A stretch of 64,000 bases of DNA, taken from NCBI GenBank assembly GCA_030264375.1, contig JASCQW010000043.1:24700032-24764031 (forward strand), in the 5' to 3' direction. Origin of the DNA: Carcharhinus longimanus (lineage: Eukaryota). The position numbers and the translations under genes were made by a program. The notes below the pieces were generated by a model. It was not told the DNA's origin, did no database searches, and worked only from the letters and a program-made list of their open reading frames with translations. Position 1 is the stretch's first letter, and the number at the start of each line of letters is the position of its first letter. Of this stretch, positions 4,101-45,416 are shown in pieces.

Positions 4101-4916
4101 GTTTTAATTTCTGCTGTTAAATGTATGGCCCTGATTAGGGTAGTAGGGAACATGCAAATCTCTTGAGAACTTAGTTGTTAAAGTGGTTTTAAAAACCGAC
4201 AAATATTTACTGTAGGCTGGTAGTATAATACTCAAGCTAACAAAACAACATGAATATCCCAACATTTTCTCCAGCACTCTTCTGACACTCTCCTACTTTG
4301 TTGCATGCTCTCTCTGTTCTCCTATTCACAAGTAGTCCATCAGCTGTGGTACCGTTAGTTGTGGTACTTTAGTGGTTGTATTTGTGTAATAATAGAGAAT
4401 GAAAGTTCAAGTCCTACCATGGTGTTTTGACCAGTCCTTTAAAGAATGAAACCTCCCATCTCATCCAGCTTAACCCATATATGACTCCAGTCCACATAAC
4501 ATGGTTGACTTGACTTACCCTCTGAAGTAGCATAACCAGCCATTTGTTTGTGTCAGTCTACTTCAAGAAGGCATTGCACTACCATCTTTGAACAGCTAGA
4601 GTCTGGCAATATATACTGCTTTGCCAGTGAAGTTTACTTCCAGGAATTAATTTTCTTAAAAGCCACTTCAGCCTAACTCCTTAGAATACCCTGTCTCAGT
4701 GTTGCTACCTTGTTACCTCCTTTCCTGCCATTGCTTCAACTATGTTGCCATTTCTATTTACAGTTTCCCTTTTTCCTTCCTGCTAACATTTCAGCATCTT
4801 GGAAAATGTCTTGAGATATTACGCTTTAGAAATGGCAATTACTGTAATTTTGAAGAATATGTTGTAGCGTCATTGTAAGTTAAACCTAATGATTTTTGAC
4901 CTTTTTCTTTTTGCAG

Positions 4917-5050
4917 CAATTCGCCTATCCCAGTTTCGTCAAGGGTATGTTACATTAAATATCACGATCCTGTGAGTGTTGGTGTGGCCCAGCATCTAAC
5001 AAACGTGGTTTTTATAGACAGAGGCCTGATAGTTGTACCCTTCAATGAAG
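4917..5050 (+). CDS. SREK1: SREK1 coding exon 2 (second half of RRM1)
   Basis: Acceptor ctttttctttttgcag| and donor GAAG|gtaggt. 134 bp, phase 2 to 1. Translates NSPIPVSSRVCYIKYHDPVSVGVAQHLTNVVFIDRGLIVVPFNEG, matching the SRSF11/SREK1 RRM1. Confidence 0.95.
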
Positions 5051-6660
5051 GTAGGTATTTAAGGCTTTGTTGCAAATCTATCAGCTCTCGGGCTGTTATT
5101 TTAATGTACATCCACTTTTTAGCAGAGGGAAAGAGTTTTCTAAGGATTCTTGATGGTGGACAGTGGTCTTCATTTAACACCAGTTATTCCATTGTCTGGA
5201 ATGTTTATCATTGTGTTAAGCATTGGGCCTATTTTGTGGACATTTGAATATTGCATTAAAAGCACAGCTCAAAATTCATGACAGGCAAAATTGTTCCTTG
5301 AGAAGCAATGGAATTGGAATCAAATGGATGTTAAAAATTACTCTGCAAAATTAGTAATTGATATGCTCCATTACTTTAATGAAAATGTTCATCTAGTCGT
5401 TTTAAATGGATTAACAGATAAGTTAAGAGCAGGCAGTTGAATTTCAGCCACACATATAAAGCATTAATTACTAATCTTGCATTGTGGTCCATCAATCATT
5501 TGTGCACATCAGTTGACTGTGGTTTTTATTTTGTCCTTGAAATCTAACTAGCCTATCAATTTTAGTCTTGCTAAAAGCATTTTGCAATAGTGTGTGCCTC
5601 GGCTATTGGGCTGTGTCAAATAGCACAAAGTTTGTGCAGTCTGGCATAGGAGTTATTGCTAGGTTTATCTGCAACCAATCATATTGCGACCAGAAGCTGA
5701 ATGATTAAACTAAAGTAGGTGATGTGAGGCATGACAATATATAATCTATGTATGCATGCTTTTTAATGCTTTGATGCAATATATTAAGTCAATAACATTA
5801 TGCAAGCCATTTAATACTAAAGTATTAGTTTTTAAAAAACACTAGTTATGGATATCCTGTGCTTTCACAAATATTAATACAGATTTTTATTAATTGGAAT
5901 ATGCTCAGTTTTGATGATCGTTTTTTTAAGCAAGCAAGAAAGTAACAGCGTGAAGTATACACAAAAAACATTGATCTGCTTCTTACAGCAGTACTGCAAG
6001 GGCGGTGCTTGCTGCTGACCTAACTTTATTTATTTAGTGTGTGCCTTGTCATAGAGCCAAGCAATAACTTATTAGTGGCTAGTTAGAGTTCTTTAAACCC
6101 ACCTTCAAGGTTAGCCAATGGGTACTCCTCAACAAAGTGAGCCATTGTTAGGCTTGCACCACAGTTGCAGTCTGGATGGTCTTGCCAACCTTACTGATGT
6201 TGGGTGACTTCTCAGAGGACTTAGCCAGTCCAGAAATGGTTTAGAAGGGCCCACTATCTCTGTGCAAGATTGAAGCGAGGTGGATGAGCAGTGGGGTCTA
6301 CGTTGACTGGTTTCTGGTTAATGTTTTCTCCAGTCAGTGCTCCTTAAATAAAAGCTGCCCACAGGGCCTCATAGGGTTGATTTTCTTTATTCCAGTGTGC
6401 CTTTTAATCAGGTGTAATTTTTTTGACATTCAGCCACAGTGAAATCGTCAAGCAATCTAATCAGCTAGAAAAATTGTAACAGGAAACCAAGAAGTAAAAA
6501 GCCTGAATAGCTCATTTTAAAAAATAATTTTACAGAAAGTAAAATAAATGTGACACAATGATGAAATTAGGGTAGAAAATAAAATATTACATTACTGGTA
6601 GAAAAGCTCAAATATGTCTCATTCAACAAAGCTGAATGTTTCCAATGTTTTTTTTAACAG

Positions 6661-6752
6661 CAAGAATAGTGTGCAAAAGGTTGTTGTCAAATTACCGTTT
6701 GTATTGATTGCATCTGTGAAGACTGCAACAACGCAAATTGTGGATGAACAGG
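6661..6752 (+). other. Candidate poison cassette exon A in SREK1 intron 2
   Basis: T-tract plus aacag| acceptor, in-frame TGA at 6705 when joined to exon 2, weak donor AGG|gtatta. Overlaps predicted hairpins. Confidence 0.35.
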
Positions 6753-8124
6753 GTATTATTGACAGCAACCTTTGGATTGAACAATGCAGACTCTGAGTTG
6801 CTGTCAGCTTTACACAATGCTGTAACTGTCTGTTGCTATCATACACAATATGTTACAGCATTGTTATTACTGCATATTCTGGACCAATATCTTAATTTTG
6901 GCCCAGCAAACTAAAAGATGGATTTTGAAACAAACCTTTAGATTTAATTTTTTCATTTGATTTATTCTGAGTAAATATTTTTAAAGCTAGTCAGTGGTTA
7001 TTGTATTCTTGAAAGTATTATGAAGCTGATACTGAGTTCCCTGCTGCCAGGGTTAACACACCATTGTGGCTGTGATTTTTGACATACATGAGACCCATAC
7101 TAAAGAAAATACCAACCAAGTTATTATAAAGATATAAATTTTATTTTATCCCTCAGAGTATTATGAGTTAAAAAATTAACATACTTCCATACTAACATTT
7201 TAAGTTTTAAAGCGAATAGGTCTTCCTGACTGAAGAAATGCATAAGCCAGCAGAGACAGGATTTAAGTTTACTGTCGGCAGTTTTAGTGTCCTTCCGAAA
7301 TTCAATAACTTGTTTCAACTGTTTGTCCCATACTGATCTCATTGTGTAAAACCTAAATGTAATTGAATCTGTCACAAAATTTTCCAGTAGAAAGTCCACA
7401 CCTGAACTTATAATATTTGACCTCGTTCACACATCTTTTTAAGATGAGATTCACCAGTCTGATAAACATTTTGAGATTTTGAAAGTATATTCTCTGGAGG
7501 TACTTTATACTATACATAATAATGTTGGGTAACTAATAATGTAGTGCTGTTCTACCAAAATTATTGTATGAACTGAGAAAAATGTCATGGCAGATAAAGT
7601 TTGACTTTAAAATGATTATTTGAACATTAAACAAAGCTTAATAAAGGTCTGATTCTTGCTATATTTCTTTGAAATTTGTGTTTTGGCTGTTACAAATTAA
7701 AATTTATATTTTGTGACTTTATGTGCCATTTCAATAATGATAATGGAATTTGCAATCTTGTAGGAGCAAACTAAGATTTTGCTCAGTGTACAGACATTTA
7801 AAAAAACCTGAATCTGTGCAGTATTAAGTCATGTGAGCCATTTTTTAATTCCTTTAATTTATGTTGGCACCTGCTCCATTCCAATTCCAAAAGCTGGTTT
7901 AGTATTAATGGGATTGTTAAGTACAAGTGGCTGCATTATCTCATATATAAGCCAAAACAGTGGCTGGTTCTTTTCCTGCAGGTATATCATGTTTTCAAGT
8001 AATTTGAAATATGTCCTAATTAATTTAAGATTTTTCTTTATTAACCATATTTAATGGTCGATGGAATCCCAGTACCAATATTAATTTGGTTTTGTATGTT
8101 TTCTCTGTGATGTGTGTGCATTAG

Positions 8125-8400
8125 TAGATGACTAGACTGGCGAAGGCAGACCTGTGCACTTGCCTACTGTAGGCATTGTTTGCCATGCCACTAATGCTGA
8201 CACCAAGCAAAACCTTCACGGGGGGAATAATGACTGGAGACTGCCCGTCGACATCTTCCAAGATGGATACCCTGTCTTTATTTTTTTATTTGTCCCTTGT
8301 ATACATCTTCTCTTTAAGCATTTTAACCTTTCTGTTTTTGTACTGTGTTGTTTATAAATGTTCTCTAAGATACTGTTTAATAAATTAGTTCCTGATGTGT
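8125..8400 (+). other. Candidate alternative terminal exon in SREK1 intron 2
   Basis: TAGTAG tandem acceptor (8122-8127), in-frame TAG at 8133, AATAAA at 8379, GT-rich tract from ~8395. Confidence 0.45.
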
Positions 8401-11400
8401 GTATGTGTGCATGTGTGTGCGCGCGTGTGTATGTATTGGGGAGTGGAGTTCTTTTTAGATACAGTAGTTTATAATTATATCATTTTGTTTTAAGATGATA
8501 AGATAAATTTATTCTGTTGTTACTTGATATTATGATATGATGCAAAATCTTATGCTTAAAGCCATTAGAGTTTGTTTTCAACAATTATTTGAGAGCATTT
8601 TTGGATGACACTGAAATTTCAATTGATATACAAAGTGATTCTTTGACTGGCTCCATCACGTTTTCTGTGGTTGCTACAGTAGTTTAGTAAATGATAGCTG
8701 TATGTTAATGAGAAGCATTTTTGGAAGCAATGTTATTACATTATGTAGATAGAGTGGCGGCTATAGTGAAAAAAACTGTTTTATACCACACATGACTTTA
8801 CAGACTGGCATCAGACATTTTTACTAAATGATTAAAAAACAGTGGTGTTTTAATGTGCAATATTTTAATCAAATTATGTACAGTAATTAATGCAACCTGA
8901 TTTTTCCCCTGTATTCTATGTAGTGACACTAGTACTTGTGTGCTTTTAAAAGCCTCTGGAAGTAATAATTTCTGCCACCCCCCACCATTATTAAAATAAG
9001 TTCATTGTGCGGTCCTAACAGAGCACGCATTTGATCACATGAAAGTGACCATTTTTAATTTGGTCTTCAGTGATTTCAGGTATTAATTGAATGTCAAAAC
9101 ACGTCAAAGTTTTTGGGTGTAAAAGCCAGTGATATATCCTTTTATAAAGTAATACTTTATATTGTCCTCAAATATAGCACGTGTTTGGACACACTTGTTC
9201 TGTTTGCCTGAAACTGCATTTCTATTTTTTAACCTAAGTTTTGGCATTTTTTTCCAATCTGCAGGCAATGACTGGTGTTGCTGTACAATTTGCTTGGGTG
9301 CCAATAGCTCTTTAGCTCTTTACTCAAAAGCTCATTTTTAGGTGTATGCTCTGACAACAAGCATCACTTGGTTAATAAAAGCAGAAATTACTCGAAATAT
9401 TTAGCAGGAGAGGCAACATCTGTGAAGAAAGCAACAGAGTTAATGTTTCAGATTGATAACCTTTTATTAGTATTGCCAGTTGTCTTTTGAACTATGGGAC
9501 GAAATTAACCAACAGGGCTGAATTTTATCCTCGCTCACTATCCATATGTATGATTCCAATTGAAAATGTGAACCCTAACTAATTTTCTTCACTATTTAAG
9601 GCTTATAGTCTTTCCATCCCCTTGTTCTGGCCTTTCTATGGTGAGCACAAACTGGAGATTAAACCTGGGACCTTCCAATTCTTCATGACTACCAAATTAC
9701 TTGGTGCATTTGTTCACTCAGTTGTTGCTTTTACTGATTGTTTTTAGTAAGTAGTGAAGTTAGGTTAAACTAATATTTAAAAAATTGTTTTAAACTTCTG
9801 AGCTAATAATTTCAGCAATAACCACAACGTACATTTTCAGAGATAGTCATTTAATACAAAAACTGGAGCCTAAGTATATTTGATAGTTAACTCTTCACTG
9901 AAATTCATACATGTTGTTGCTGCTCACAGTATGTCTGGAAGCTGAAGGTGACATCAATAATTTGCTGCGTTTTTTATGCAGAAATATATGGCAGGGGCTA
10001 GCTGGTCTTGTCTAGTCTGATGCATTCAGATATGGTAAAGCCTTCATGTACTACCAATGAGCTGCAACCACCCTTAGACAATTCTCTGGGCAAGAAACAA
10101 TAAACTTGGACAAATCTGTGGAAAATTCTTCCCAGGCCTCCAAAAGCATAAGGGTTGTTATAGGTAACTGGTATCTAAGTAAATCTTAAAACATATTCTG
10201 AAGATCTTACTATCACTACTGTTGAGTCATGACAAGCTTGTTGTTGACGTCTTTGATCTTCAGCACTGAGGAACAAAAACATCATGTTGTGATACTGTGA
10301 GCAACAGAACCACAGGTCTTGATATTAATTTCTATTATAAGGTGGAGCAGATTGGGTAGGGGATTAAACTGGCATGACCTAACCCTCTGTGTGTGCCCAC
10401 TGCATTTTTAAGCTGGTGGGATCCTTGACATCTGAATGTCTACTATGATGAGATGGAACACTTCAATAACCATAGACCATAAGACATAGGAGCAGAAATA
10501 GGACATTTGGCCCATCAAATCTGCTGCACCATTCAGTGAGATTATATGGTCTGATATGATAATATTTAAGTTGGACTCCAAGGATGCAGTTGGAAGCCCA
10601 ATTTAAAATTGACAGGTGCTGCATGGGTTTCCCAGTGGTCAAGGAACAGGTCAAAAAAGGGAGAAGGGCAGTACTGAAGTCACAAGATAATTGCCTTTTC
10701 AGGGCAGGGAGCATTCGTGCTTTTTTCGGCTTTTTGTTCGATCACGGCTTCTCCTTGCTGTCAACTGATCTTCGTCACCATTGTGCTGTGGACTGTTCCC
10801 AGGAGTATTTAACTGCAACCACCTGCGGCTGGCTTTCCTCCTGGCCACTGACCATGTGATCCATTTGGCTGGCTGTTGGATAGAAAACTGAGCCAAAAAA
10901 ACTATAATGCAGTCCAGCAATAACGTTCAAAAGGATACACATTTCTTCCCCTGCCAGGTTCCTTGGCCTCCCCTGCACTCTCTGTAAATATAGTAGCCAC
11001 AATATTAGCATTTTGAAAAGCCAGTCTTATTACTGGGTTTGTTGGGTTCAATAATGTATCAGAATAAGTTATAGCAGGATAGCCAATGTTTTGTAGATAA
11101 CGGAATATCAGAATAATTCTATACTAAAAAAGGATATACAAGTTTAATTTTTTTAAATCCAATAACCTCTCTGATATTCTCATTAAAACAAATTCTGTAT
11201 ATAAGAAACATAGACCAGCAGACATAGAAAAGCCATGAACCTGTTTATTAACACGTTTATCATTTAACTACATGTAGTGACACACCAAATATTGTTGCAT
11301 TATGACTTGGCACACATCTAATTAGCACCGTCTTCTCACACTTTGTTCGTTGAACCCCATTTCTCCTCTTCCCTTTTCTATAATGCTCTACTTTTGCACA

Positions 11401-12565
11401 TTATCCCTTACTTTCCAACACTTACCCATCCTACCATTTTGTCTTTACCTGCCTGCAGCTTTCTCTCATTTGATCACTCTATCCTACTTGTTCCCTCTGT
11501 CTTTCTCATTTTACTTCTTCTGCTTTACTTATTACTTGCATCTCTCTTTTTCAATGTTAATAGCAACAGTTAAGTCTTAATGACCTGAGCAGCATATGGC
11601 AGTGTGGGGTACAGGAATGGGCTTCTGCTTTGCTGCAGAAGCTTGTAAGACTAAAAGGATGTGCTTGTGGCAGTAGCAGCAGTTTTCTCACACCATCCTA
11701 CCCATACCCCTATCTTCACTCTCCTCCCTTTGGAGCATGCAAGGACCATTTGGTTGCTCAAAAGCTTTTGTTTGTTGCAGCATTTCTGGATAAAATTAAT
11801 TAGTTGTTTTATCAAAGGGTTGTGAAGCTTTTGTTTTTAACTCTTTGCATCACACCTCAAAATTGTCAGAAATATTAAGTCAAAGCCAGTTATTTCCTGG
11901 TAATCTTTCTGACCTTGATAACCTGGCTTCTATCTACAGGCAAGAGTCGAAGAATTATAAAATACCACTGATCTGCAGAAGCTTAATTCAGTATTTGCCT
12001 GTTTATACCTCTTTTCCACATAGAATAATTTAGCAGTAATCTTAAAGGGACTCCGCTCTATCTTAGCAAGTAAAAATGAAAACTGTACTCCAATCAATGC
12101 TACAGGAGATCAACTCTGAGTTACCTGGGTCAAGAAGAAAAGAAGGACAGTTAAGTAACTCATCAAAGAAGCACTTCAGCTACAGAAGGGCTGCATAAGA
12201 TTTGAGCTGTCAGCTTTCCCCACCCAACCCCATCCTGGCTTTTTAGCACAGTAACTGGTGATCAGTTAACTGTAAAATCATTTGTGCTGATGCACATATA
12301 TGCCATTGTTCCATAGGCAAAGTAAACCGATGTGAAATTTTAGAGCTGTAATTTAACATGGTATCCAGGACAAATTGAATTACATGAAACAATATAATCT
12401 CATAAATAAACAATTATGGTGTCTTGCTGCGACTGTTTAACTGGTTTTTAATTTTTTTTTAAAAAATCAGTTCTTCGATTTTGGCTATGTCATTTTATTG
12501 GGGACTAAAAAAAAAGAATTTTAAAAAATGTTCTTCTTTTCTGTATCTGATGTTCTGTGTGCTAG

Positions 12566-12691
12566 TAGTGATGCAGCCAACATGAACGGTTGTCGTGTGT
12601 AACACAACTTTCGAACACTGAGAGTGATCGCCTGGGGAAAGCGTCCATGCTTGATATCGTATGGTACATGACCAATAAGTTTCAAGTACAG
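12566..12691 (+). other. Candidate poison cassette exon just upstream of SREK1 exon 3
   Basis: Pyrimidine tract plus TAGTAG tandem acceptor, in-frame TGA at 12583, donors ATG|gtacat (12663) or CAG|gtgacc (12691). Several CpGs retained in AT-rich context. Confidence 0.5.
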
Positions 12692-12964
12692 GTGACCATA
12701 GCTCAAAGTGTTAAATTATTGTCTACATTTTTAATTATTAAAACAACTTTTCCTGTAATATATGGTTGCTTACAGTTTTGACAGTTTTGCATTTTATTTT
12801 AATTTTATTACAGAGTAGGTTAAAAAGACATCTTTGTTTGTATGTTTTTGGAAGGATCTAGAAGTGAGCTCTCAGATTAGTCAATCTGTGCTTTTGAGAT
12901 GGGAAAATAAACTTTTTTTTACTTGATTCCACTATCCTAAGTAATTGTTTTGTTTCTTTCACAG

Positions 12965-13077
12965 GTAAAATCCCAGATGAAGCCAAAGCTGTGTCCCTTT
13001 TGGCTCCTGCCACTTCTACAGGATTGATATCTGGTGCAGGATTGCTCCCAGTCCCAACTTCAAACCCCCTTACTTCC
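12965..13077 (+). CDS. SREK1: SREK1 coding exon 3
   Basis: ttctttcacag| ... TCC|gtatgt. 113 bp, phase 1 to 0. GKIPDEAKAVSLLAPATSTGLISGAGLLPVPTSNPLTS. Confidence 0.93.
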
Positions 13078-13543
13078 GTATGTGACATTGTAACATCTGA
13101 AGTGTCTATAAAACATTCCTTTCATATTTACACAGCATAAATATAATTGATAAGTGTGGTATATGAAATTAGAGCAGCAACTGGATGGTCAGGTAGTTTT
13201 CTTTATAAAATTCAGTATTAAACTGAATTTTAAGGGCAGCAGCATGTGAGGGGAATTAGTTGGTGACCATTGGAAGCAAAGAAATTGGCAGCCATTGGCT
13301 GAGTTGGAACAAGAAATGCAACGTGGTGGAATGAAAGGTGCACCTTGTCCTCAACAAATTAGAATTTGTATTGGAGAATGTGAATACAGGACCCTTCCCC
13401 ATTCCTCTTCACCCCATCATTGTCCATGCTCCAGAACTCACTGNNNNNNNNNNNNNNNNNNNNNNNNNNNNNNNNNNNNNNNNNNNNNNNNNNNNNNNNN
13501 NNNNNNNNNNNNNNNNNNNNNNNNNNNNNNNNNNNNNNNNNNN

Positions 13544-45011: not shown

Positions 45012-45416
45012 GTGTTGTNNNNNNNNNNNNNNNNNNNNNNNNNNNNNNNNNNNNNNNNNNNNNNNNNNNNNNNNNNNNNNNNNNNNNNNNNNNNNNNNNN
45101 NNNNNNNNNNNNNNNNNNNNNNNNNNNNNNNNNNNNNNNNNNNNNNNNNNNNNNNNNNNNNNNNNNNNNNNNNNNNNNNNNNNNNNNNNNNNNNNNNNNN
45201 NNNNNNNNNNNNNNNNNGGAGGTCCAGGTCGCCGAGGAGGAGGTCCAGGTCGCCAAGGAGGAGGTCCAGGTCGCCGAGGCGGGTATCCAGATCACCAAGG
45301 AGGAGATCCAGGTCACCAAGAAGAAGATCAAGGTCACCAAGAAGGAGGTCAAGGTCACCGAGAAGGCTGCCACGAACACCAAAAAGAAGATTTTCTAGAT
45401 CTCCATCTCCAAGAAG
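45012..45416 (+). CDS. SREK1: SREK1 RS-repeat exon, interrupted by a 199-N gap (45019-45217)
   Basis: Probable acceptor ctttgtaccag|; donor AAG|gtgact. Encodes (RSRSPRR)n then LPRTPKRRFSRSPSPRR. The 5' boundary is less certain because of the gap. Confidence 0.82.
45218..45366 (+). repeat. 21-bp coding tandem repeat (RSRSPRR heptads), at least 7 copies
   Basis: Variants of AGGTCCAGGTCGCCGAGGAGG. Confidence 0.92.

Follow-up and report, generated by a model that had tools for sequence, protein, structure and literature searches.

In human SREK1, skipping of the 124-nucleotide (nt) exon 3 is described as the only conserved alternative splicing event (PMC7363496, citing VastDB). In human SRSF11, there are two poison exons whose flanking introns are retained in speckles (PMC12052203). 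A poison cassette common to paralogues is known from SRSF4 and SRSF6, whose intron-2 cassette comes from the pre-duplication gene (PMC4379411, Lareau and Brenner 2015). In SF3B1, the long retained intron 4 contains conserved non-coding decoy exons and competing splice sites (PMC6097662, Parra et al. 2018). In SF3B3, a stem-loop with a concealed branch site lies upstream of a poison exon (PMC11162794). Here I describe intron 2 of the SREK1 gene of Carcharhinus longimanus (assembly GCA_030264375.1, contig JASCQW010000043.1). All positions are those of the window, that is, the 64,000-nt stretch of DNA from 24,700,032 to 24,764,031 of the forward strand. An earlier note on this intron had proposed a switch of four acceptor-like sites gated by RNA folding, which is the kind of gating described for SF3B3. 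It was found that two of these sites, 8127 and 12568, are conserved acceptors introducing stop codons. As in other SR-protein genes, some of the pre-mRNA is probably spliced into them at the cost of full-length mRNA.

Two conserved acceptors in SREK1 intron 2

As far as sequence comparison can tell, the site at 12568 is real. It is the acceptor of a 123-nt exon whose first stop is codon 6, located 106 nt before the exon end and thus beyond the 50–55 nt criterion for premature stops. Like the poison cassettes of SR genes, the exon is bounded by AG and GT, has a premature stop, and is conserved above the flanking intron. The human 124-nt exon 3, represented by a 132-amino acid (aa) isoform (P0240), lies in the same intron and uses the same acceptor. 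The human-type tail VMQPT..TVV.CNTTF..KRPCLIS matches reading frames of the shark window. I compared 282 proteins, of which 238 were classed as SREK1 and 41 as SRSF11 or other, with three lacking an anchor. In 127 SREK1 records, the reading does not proceed into exon 3. A tail starting with V(M/T)QP, which aligns to 12568-12668, was found in 28 of them (mammals, birds, crocodile, teleosts, and turtles), and five more have the PCLIS frame of the same exon. Such counts, taken from the records listed, show taxon spread and not independent observations, since the annotations are partly projected and the cluster listings show up to 15 members each. In tetrapod SREK1 records, the stop is preceded by 34 codons, in contrast to codon 6 in the shark. 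Thus, the position of the stop has turned over.

A homologous exon is found in the paralogue SRSF11 (G000:C81, L004; named by its match to SRSF11 records), whose intron at this position is 3117 nt long. The local score of 12500-12740 against this intron is 162.5, compared with a mean of 57.2 (standard deviation 5.9, maximum 75) for 200 shuffles. Among 76 sliding 200-nt windows, 12451-12850 is the sole part with a z above 5. In the alignment, 130 of 209 columns are identical, and the distal AG and the AGTACAG/GTGA donor are in register. The SRSF11 exon is 120 nt in length with a stop at codon 11, and its acceptor is a single AG. The last 10 residues of the SRSF11 record of the chimaera Callorhinchus (P0189) are identical to those of the shark SRSF11 exon. 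Since the corresponding intron of SRSF11 carries the homologous exon, the cassette of 12569-12691 predates the duplication of SREK1 and SRSF11. The two introns differ in length (3.1 kb in SRSF11 and 7.9 kb in SREK1). In addition to the homologous stop exon, SRSF11 has two more acceptors at the same intron position. The three acceptors of the shark SRSF11 intron 2 were located at G000:C81:45127476, 45126219, and 45125743, with the frames VEK.., VLFPGSA, and VKQPT.., respectively. These frames match annotated SRSF11 tails of mammals, teleosts, and chimaera; thus, SRSF11 does have a layout with several acceptors.

The acceptor at 8127 is probably real as well, as judged from similar comparisons. 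Splicing of exon 2 to this AG would yield an RRM1-only product, predicted to be about 85 aa in the shark. An exact DD ending after exon 2 was found in 31 of the 127 records, and two more have a tail starting with DD. Chimpanzee, bison, birds, crocodile, and many teleosts are among the named sources of the DD-ending records. Among these isoforms, those of 99-100 aa (P0212 'SREK1 isoform 14', P0227, and P0268) correspond to exon 2 joined to a DD-stop acceptor like 8127 and are also RRM1-only. They are known as protein records, in which the 3′ end of the exon and the biotype are invisible. A DD-stop follows just one of the 455 AGs in the intron (8127) and is found at 3 of 7906 intron positions. 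The block around 8127 is nearly invariant among sharks. In an organism designated H, 1 of 318 positions differs in 8010-8327, whereas five further contigs from the intron have 82 differences in 1625 positions (Fisher p = 1e-5). In organism K, there is one difference in 162 positions of the block 8010-8330, versus 14 in 112 (p = 2e-5), and organism B has no difference in 859 positions of 7472-8330, versus 14 in 2450 (p = 0.03). In summary, the evidence for the two sites comes from isoform records across vertebrates, conservation among sharks, and homology to the paralogue.

The four sites of the earlier note (5988/5991, 6660, 8124/8127, and 12565/12568) do exist, with stops after 11/10, 15, 3/2, and 6/5 codons, respectively, and three of them are indeed NAGNAG tandems. 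The note had also warned that early stops are expected by chance. As it turned out, 67% of the 455 intron AGs are followed by a stop in the first 16 codons, and 44 belong to a NAGNAG. By themselves, the stops and tandems do not exceed chance. The proposal of a stop-carrying switch giving NMD (nonsense-mediated decay) substrates or an RRM1-only product stands for 8127 and 12568 but not for 6660 and 5988/5991. The cross-species conservation by which the sites were to be judged is likewise seen at 8127 and 12568, whereas the organism H contig over 6660 diverges at the background rate (14 differences in 273 positions; p = 0.88). Tails predicted from 5988/5991 and 6660 are found in none of the 127 records, where shark-only sites could not appear, and no joint into either site was seen in the contigs of four runs. 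As a conserved acceptor, 6660 is unsupported for these reasons and for its location inside a dispersed repeat. There is no positive evidence for the 5988/5991 site, and the candidate donors for a 5991 exon (6110 and 6137) fall within another repeat (6025-6344). These two sites are probably bystanders. As for the tandems, proximal AG use would give VDD or VVMQ tails, neither of which is found among the 127 records of non-shark vertebrates. Judging from these sequences, only the distal AG of each of the two valid tandems, 8127 and 12568, holds up.

Earlier records already contain the human cassette and the two short isoforms. The shark orthologues and the SREK1-SRSF11 cassette homology, both recognized by sequence comparison, are added here, and the exon shared by the two genes is a modest new point. 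The known alternative events of SREK1 are extended to cartilaginous fish, and the SREK1 cassette and the SRSF11 poison exon are seen as one ancestral exon, older than the gene split, with a mobile stop position. The two genes offer a clean paralogue pair for studying cross-regulation; no new mechanism is established. The exon homology was not found in print by a literature search outside which most subscription papers lie. Neither SRSF11 nor SREK1 occurs in PMC4379411 or is named in the main text of PMC6097662. In the available parts of PMC6203201, PMC11357089, PMC10465970, and bioRxiv 10.1101/175901, SREK1 occurs only in lists, figure legends, and unrelated contexts.

Probable retention of intron 2 and competing explanations

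Contigs of four runs were compared over 4700-8330. None of the sequencing runs found to contain the sequence is recorded as RNA; those used were presumed to be RNA by guess, and the label is supported by contigs joining exon 1 to exon 2 at 4917 in three of the four. The contigs show presence and not level. Over 5051-8330, cover is near-continuous in organisms B and I and in pieces in organism H. A single H contig runs from exon 1 through exon 2 into intron 2, and one contig (X20) extends about 169 nt beyond 8330. Run X3 contains 0.81 of the words of 4900-13100, compared with 0.84 expected at full cover given its divergence, which suggests that the whole intron is present. As a control, 4700-4821 of intron 1 has no cover in the four runs; such a hole alone proves nothing. 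Thus, as in SF3B1, an intron of more than 1 kb with conserved non-coding exons is left unspliced in presumed RNA. Human SRSF11, with its retained introns next to poison exons, behaves in a similar way (PMC12052203). A decoy function is established by deletion tests; SREK1 is likened to SF3B1 by sequence and contigs.

Ordinary unproductive splicing of the SR type with intron retention is the most likely explanation. Skipping of the cassette would give full-length SREK1. With 12569-12691 included, the stop would precede the following junction by 106 nt, and the message would be an NMD substrate. Splicing to 8127 would produce an RRM1-only message with a terminal or long exon. Weak, non-productive engagement of 8127 and 12568 may keep the intron unspliced in a decoy-like manner. 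The balance might depend on SREK1, SRSF11, or further splicing factors that bind to the conserved primary sequence and so provide homeostatic feedback. The feedback is inferred from the behavior of the SR family (PMC4379411).

Several observations weigh against this explanation. Being annotations, the isoform records probably include many that were projected from one another, and the short SREK1 records are from bony vertebrates. On a rough matrix, the highest-scoring GT within 330 nt of 8127 reaches -1.7, and only weak GC sites are found. Unlike a classic poison cassette, 8127 therefore lacks the expected donor; it looks like the acceptor of a terminal exon, that of a long exon, or a decoy. 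The joints from exon 2 into the intron that the earlier note had asked for did not turn up within 4700-8330. No joint into 8127 was found in any of the four runs, nor into 8124 or the two bystander sites. Since contigs drop rare variants, this lack of joints within 4700-8330 is not absence. Inclusion of the cassette in the shark is predicted from sequence, the contig comparison covering 4700-8330. In human SREK1, inclusion of exon 3 was unchanged upon SRSF6 knock-down (PMC7363496).

The missing donor also fits an explanation in which 8010-8330 is mainly the 3′ untranslated region of a functional RRM1-only isoform, terminated by intronic polyadenylation, and not an NMD or decoy device. Conservation reaches at least 200 nt past the DD-stop, AATAAA occurs at 8379 and 9374, and the DD-stop frame is maintained from mammals to teleosts and the shark. 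However, the ends of contigs past the block disagree among the runs (about 8327, 8355, 8417, and 8499), and X3 seems to hold the whole intron. The DD-stop needs only 8 conserved nt, which conservation of a splice signal would give equally, and the exon of 12569-12691 is left unexplained. It is quite improbable that the block serves mainly in this way. Even less credible is the idea that the conserved blocks act as enhancers at the DNA level, with the alternative junctions being splicing noise that is tolerated. Enhancer function is described for many ultraconserved elements (PMC4379411), and the lack of junctions into 8127 in the four runs would be consistent with it. However, the center of the SREK1-SRSF11 homology is a single exon that aligns at both of its splice sites, annotations throughout jawed vertebrates include these junctions, and the exon ending is retained in the chimaera record P0189. 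I regard this idea as very unlikely.

The earlier note placed RNA folding in control of splice-site access. Hairpins do exist near 5988, 6660, and 8124, but the tight windows showing them were picked after the fact. In such windows, z is -2.0 at 5988 (11 of 200 shuffles as good), -4.8 at 6660 (0 of 200), and -2.15 at 8124 (5 of 200). In wide windows, z is +0.41, -2.99, and -1.73, respectively, and -0.28 at 12565. Of 202 sliding windows, seven have z below -2 and one has z below -3, at 6660-6779. A folding gate at the two real sites would consist of a helix hiding the proximal AG 8124 and helices covering the weak cassette donor, with helicases or RNA-binding proteins switching inclusion. The first helix, 8118-8125 with 8190-8197, has pair probabilities of 0.98, 0.98, 0.77, and 0.4 in four windows. 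It mostly spares 8127, which fits the records with the distal AG only, and a comparable nearby 8-nt complement exists at just 22 of 422 intron AGs. In both paralogues, the 3′ half of the cassette folds a helix in the same register close to the donor, and structure gating has a precedent in SF3B3 (PMC11162794). However, the z values at the real sites are modest (-1.7 to -2.15 at 8124, -0.28 and -1.9 at the cassette, and -0.7 in SRSF11). Only one of 33 consensus pairs of the cassette helix is changed on both sides, in a comparison of two sequences. No covariation signal is possible at the 8127 block because it is nearly invariant. The window-averaged pairing is 0.29 at both 8124 and 8127, within the range of random AGs (median 0.37, quartile 0.15). 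In SRSF11, the donor is open for the most part (0.55 in three of four windows), and the constitutive exon 2 donor is nearly as paired as the cassette donor. In contrast to SF3B3, the SREK1 sites gave no stem that is significant and conserved, and SREK1 is not among the listed rows of the human concealed-branch-site table in the available part of PMC11162794. Thus, with weak z values, no covariation, and ordinary accessibility, control by folding was not borne out, and a folding gate at the real sites is doubtful. It is similarly unlikely that SREK1 and SRSF11 share an ancestral intron-2 switch in which modeled helices hide the proximal AG of the TAGTAG tandem at 8124 and lock the weak donor of the shared cassette; if so, the two genes would cross-regulate via a common structured exon.

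Repeats, hairpins, and sequence similarities within the intron

The features of the locus are listed in Table 1. The earlier note had recognized no transposon from exon 2 to about 9350, yet two dispersed repeats lie inside this zone, at 6025-6344 and 6602-6778. Local self-BLAST detected neither of them. The zone is nevertheless repeat-poor, since five pieces (5060-5900, 5880-6070, 7100-7700, 8060-8300, and 8450-9400) are single-copy, with only the self match found, and the next repeat begins at about 9380. There are six tandem repeats in the window, none inside intron 2, and direct or inverted repeats within the intron are only short pairs at chance level. Rfam at gathering thresholds gave no match over the window.

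Table 1. Features of SREK1 intron 2 and its flanking exons in the window
Feature	Position	Strand	Evidence or remark
SREK1 exon 2 (second half of RRM1)	4917-5050	+	Translation; 95-100% identity to named chondrichthyan SREK1 proteins
SREK1 intron 2, GT..AG, phase 1, likely often retained	5051-12964	+	Exon translations; contig cover
Conserved 5′ end of intron 2	5051-5272	+	Organism H, 3/222 differences vs 82/1625 background, Fisher p = 0.01
Proposed acceptors 5988/5991 with small hairpin, unsupported	5980-6022	+	z -2.0 in tight window, +0.41 in wide window
Old dispersed repeat copy	6025-6344	.	At least 39 other genomic matches at 67-80%; 40 of 54 candidates scored
Second dispersed repeat copy, with 6660 AG and long hairpin 6671-6777	6602-6778	.	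At least 11 other matches at 70-85%
Near-invariant single-copy block	8010-8330 (right limit is the end of the compared stretch)	+	Shark contigs; genome search
Predicted 8-bp helix burying proximal AG 8124, mostly sparing 8127	8118-8125 : 8190-8197	+	Pair probability 0.4-0.98 by window
Distal AG (8127) and first 8 nt of alternative exon, reading DD-stop	8126-8135	+	Intron frames; SREK1 isoform records
AATAAA, possible polyadenylation signal if the DD-stop exon is terminal	8379-8384	+	Second candidate at 9374; 9 AATAAA in intron
Dispersed repeat bounding the repeat-poor zone	9380-9475	.	40 other matches at 76-89%
Cassette exon, 123 nt, in-frame stop 12583-12585	12569-12691	+	Counterpart of human 124-nt exon 3; homolog of SRSF11 120-nt exon
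Predicted stacked helices in cassette 3′ half, reaching the donor	12628-12695	+	z -1.9; SRSF11 z -0.7
SREK1 constitutive exon 3	12965-13078	+	Translation

The long hairpin of 6671-6777 was considered as a mere palindrome of the repeat family, which proved half right. Of its 42 pairs, 33 are able to form in at least four of seven other copies, but five other copies fold no better than shuffles (z of +1.6 to -0.6, versus -4.8 here). The stem is completed by a 6-nt gap and several copy-specific bases. Mutational correction of quasi-palindromes is a known kind of stem-perfecting mechanism. The hairpin is partly inherited and partly copy-specific; quasi-palindrome correction or chance could account for it, and selection is possible.

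Outside the cassette, similarity to SRSF11 is low. The regions of 5988, 6660, and 8124 score 43.5, 58.5, and 63.5 against the whole SRSF11 intron, compared with shuffle means of 48.4, 56.1, and 53.9, and are not significant. Against a chosen SRSF11 segment, the score of the 8127 block is reached by 2 of 500 shuffles, so that homology is weak at best. A UG-rich tract before TAG, without a plain pyrimidine tract, is found at all four conserved acceptors, namely at 8100-8135, at 12540-12575, and upstream of both SRSF11 exons. From its sequence, the tract could possibly be a shared binding site or a trace of ancient duplication. An ancient tandem duplication linking 8124 and 12568 was not accepted; one of 500 shuffles reaches the score, the segments were chosen post hoc, and the score is driven by the shared UG-rich tract. 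It may be kept as a weak lead.

Exons and assembly around the intron

The DNA of exon 2 is almost invariant among sharks B, H, and K, with 0-1 differences in 134 nt. Over exon 2 and the first 222 nt of intron 2, conservation exceeds the needs of the protein. The donor of exon 3 (13079) is far off consensus, with a score of -5.3 on the rough matrix.

Exon 1 lies at G000:C99:49273733-49273852 (L029), on a contig other than that of exons 2 onward (C43). Its last 30 nt are identical to loose contig ends found before 4917 (X3 and X18; X23 with one difference). The 20 kb upstream of the window are largely N (L009, L010). The separate location of exon 1 is probably an assembly misplacement. In a Mustelus SREK1 record (P0002), a different short N-terminus replaces exon 1, perhaps as an artefact of a missing exon 1. 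Farther downstream in the window, a 21/42-nt tandem array at 45218-45386 perhaps represents the E/K-rich coding repeat of SREK1.

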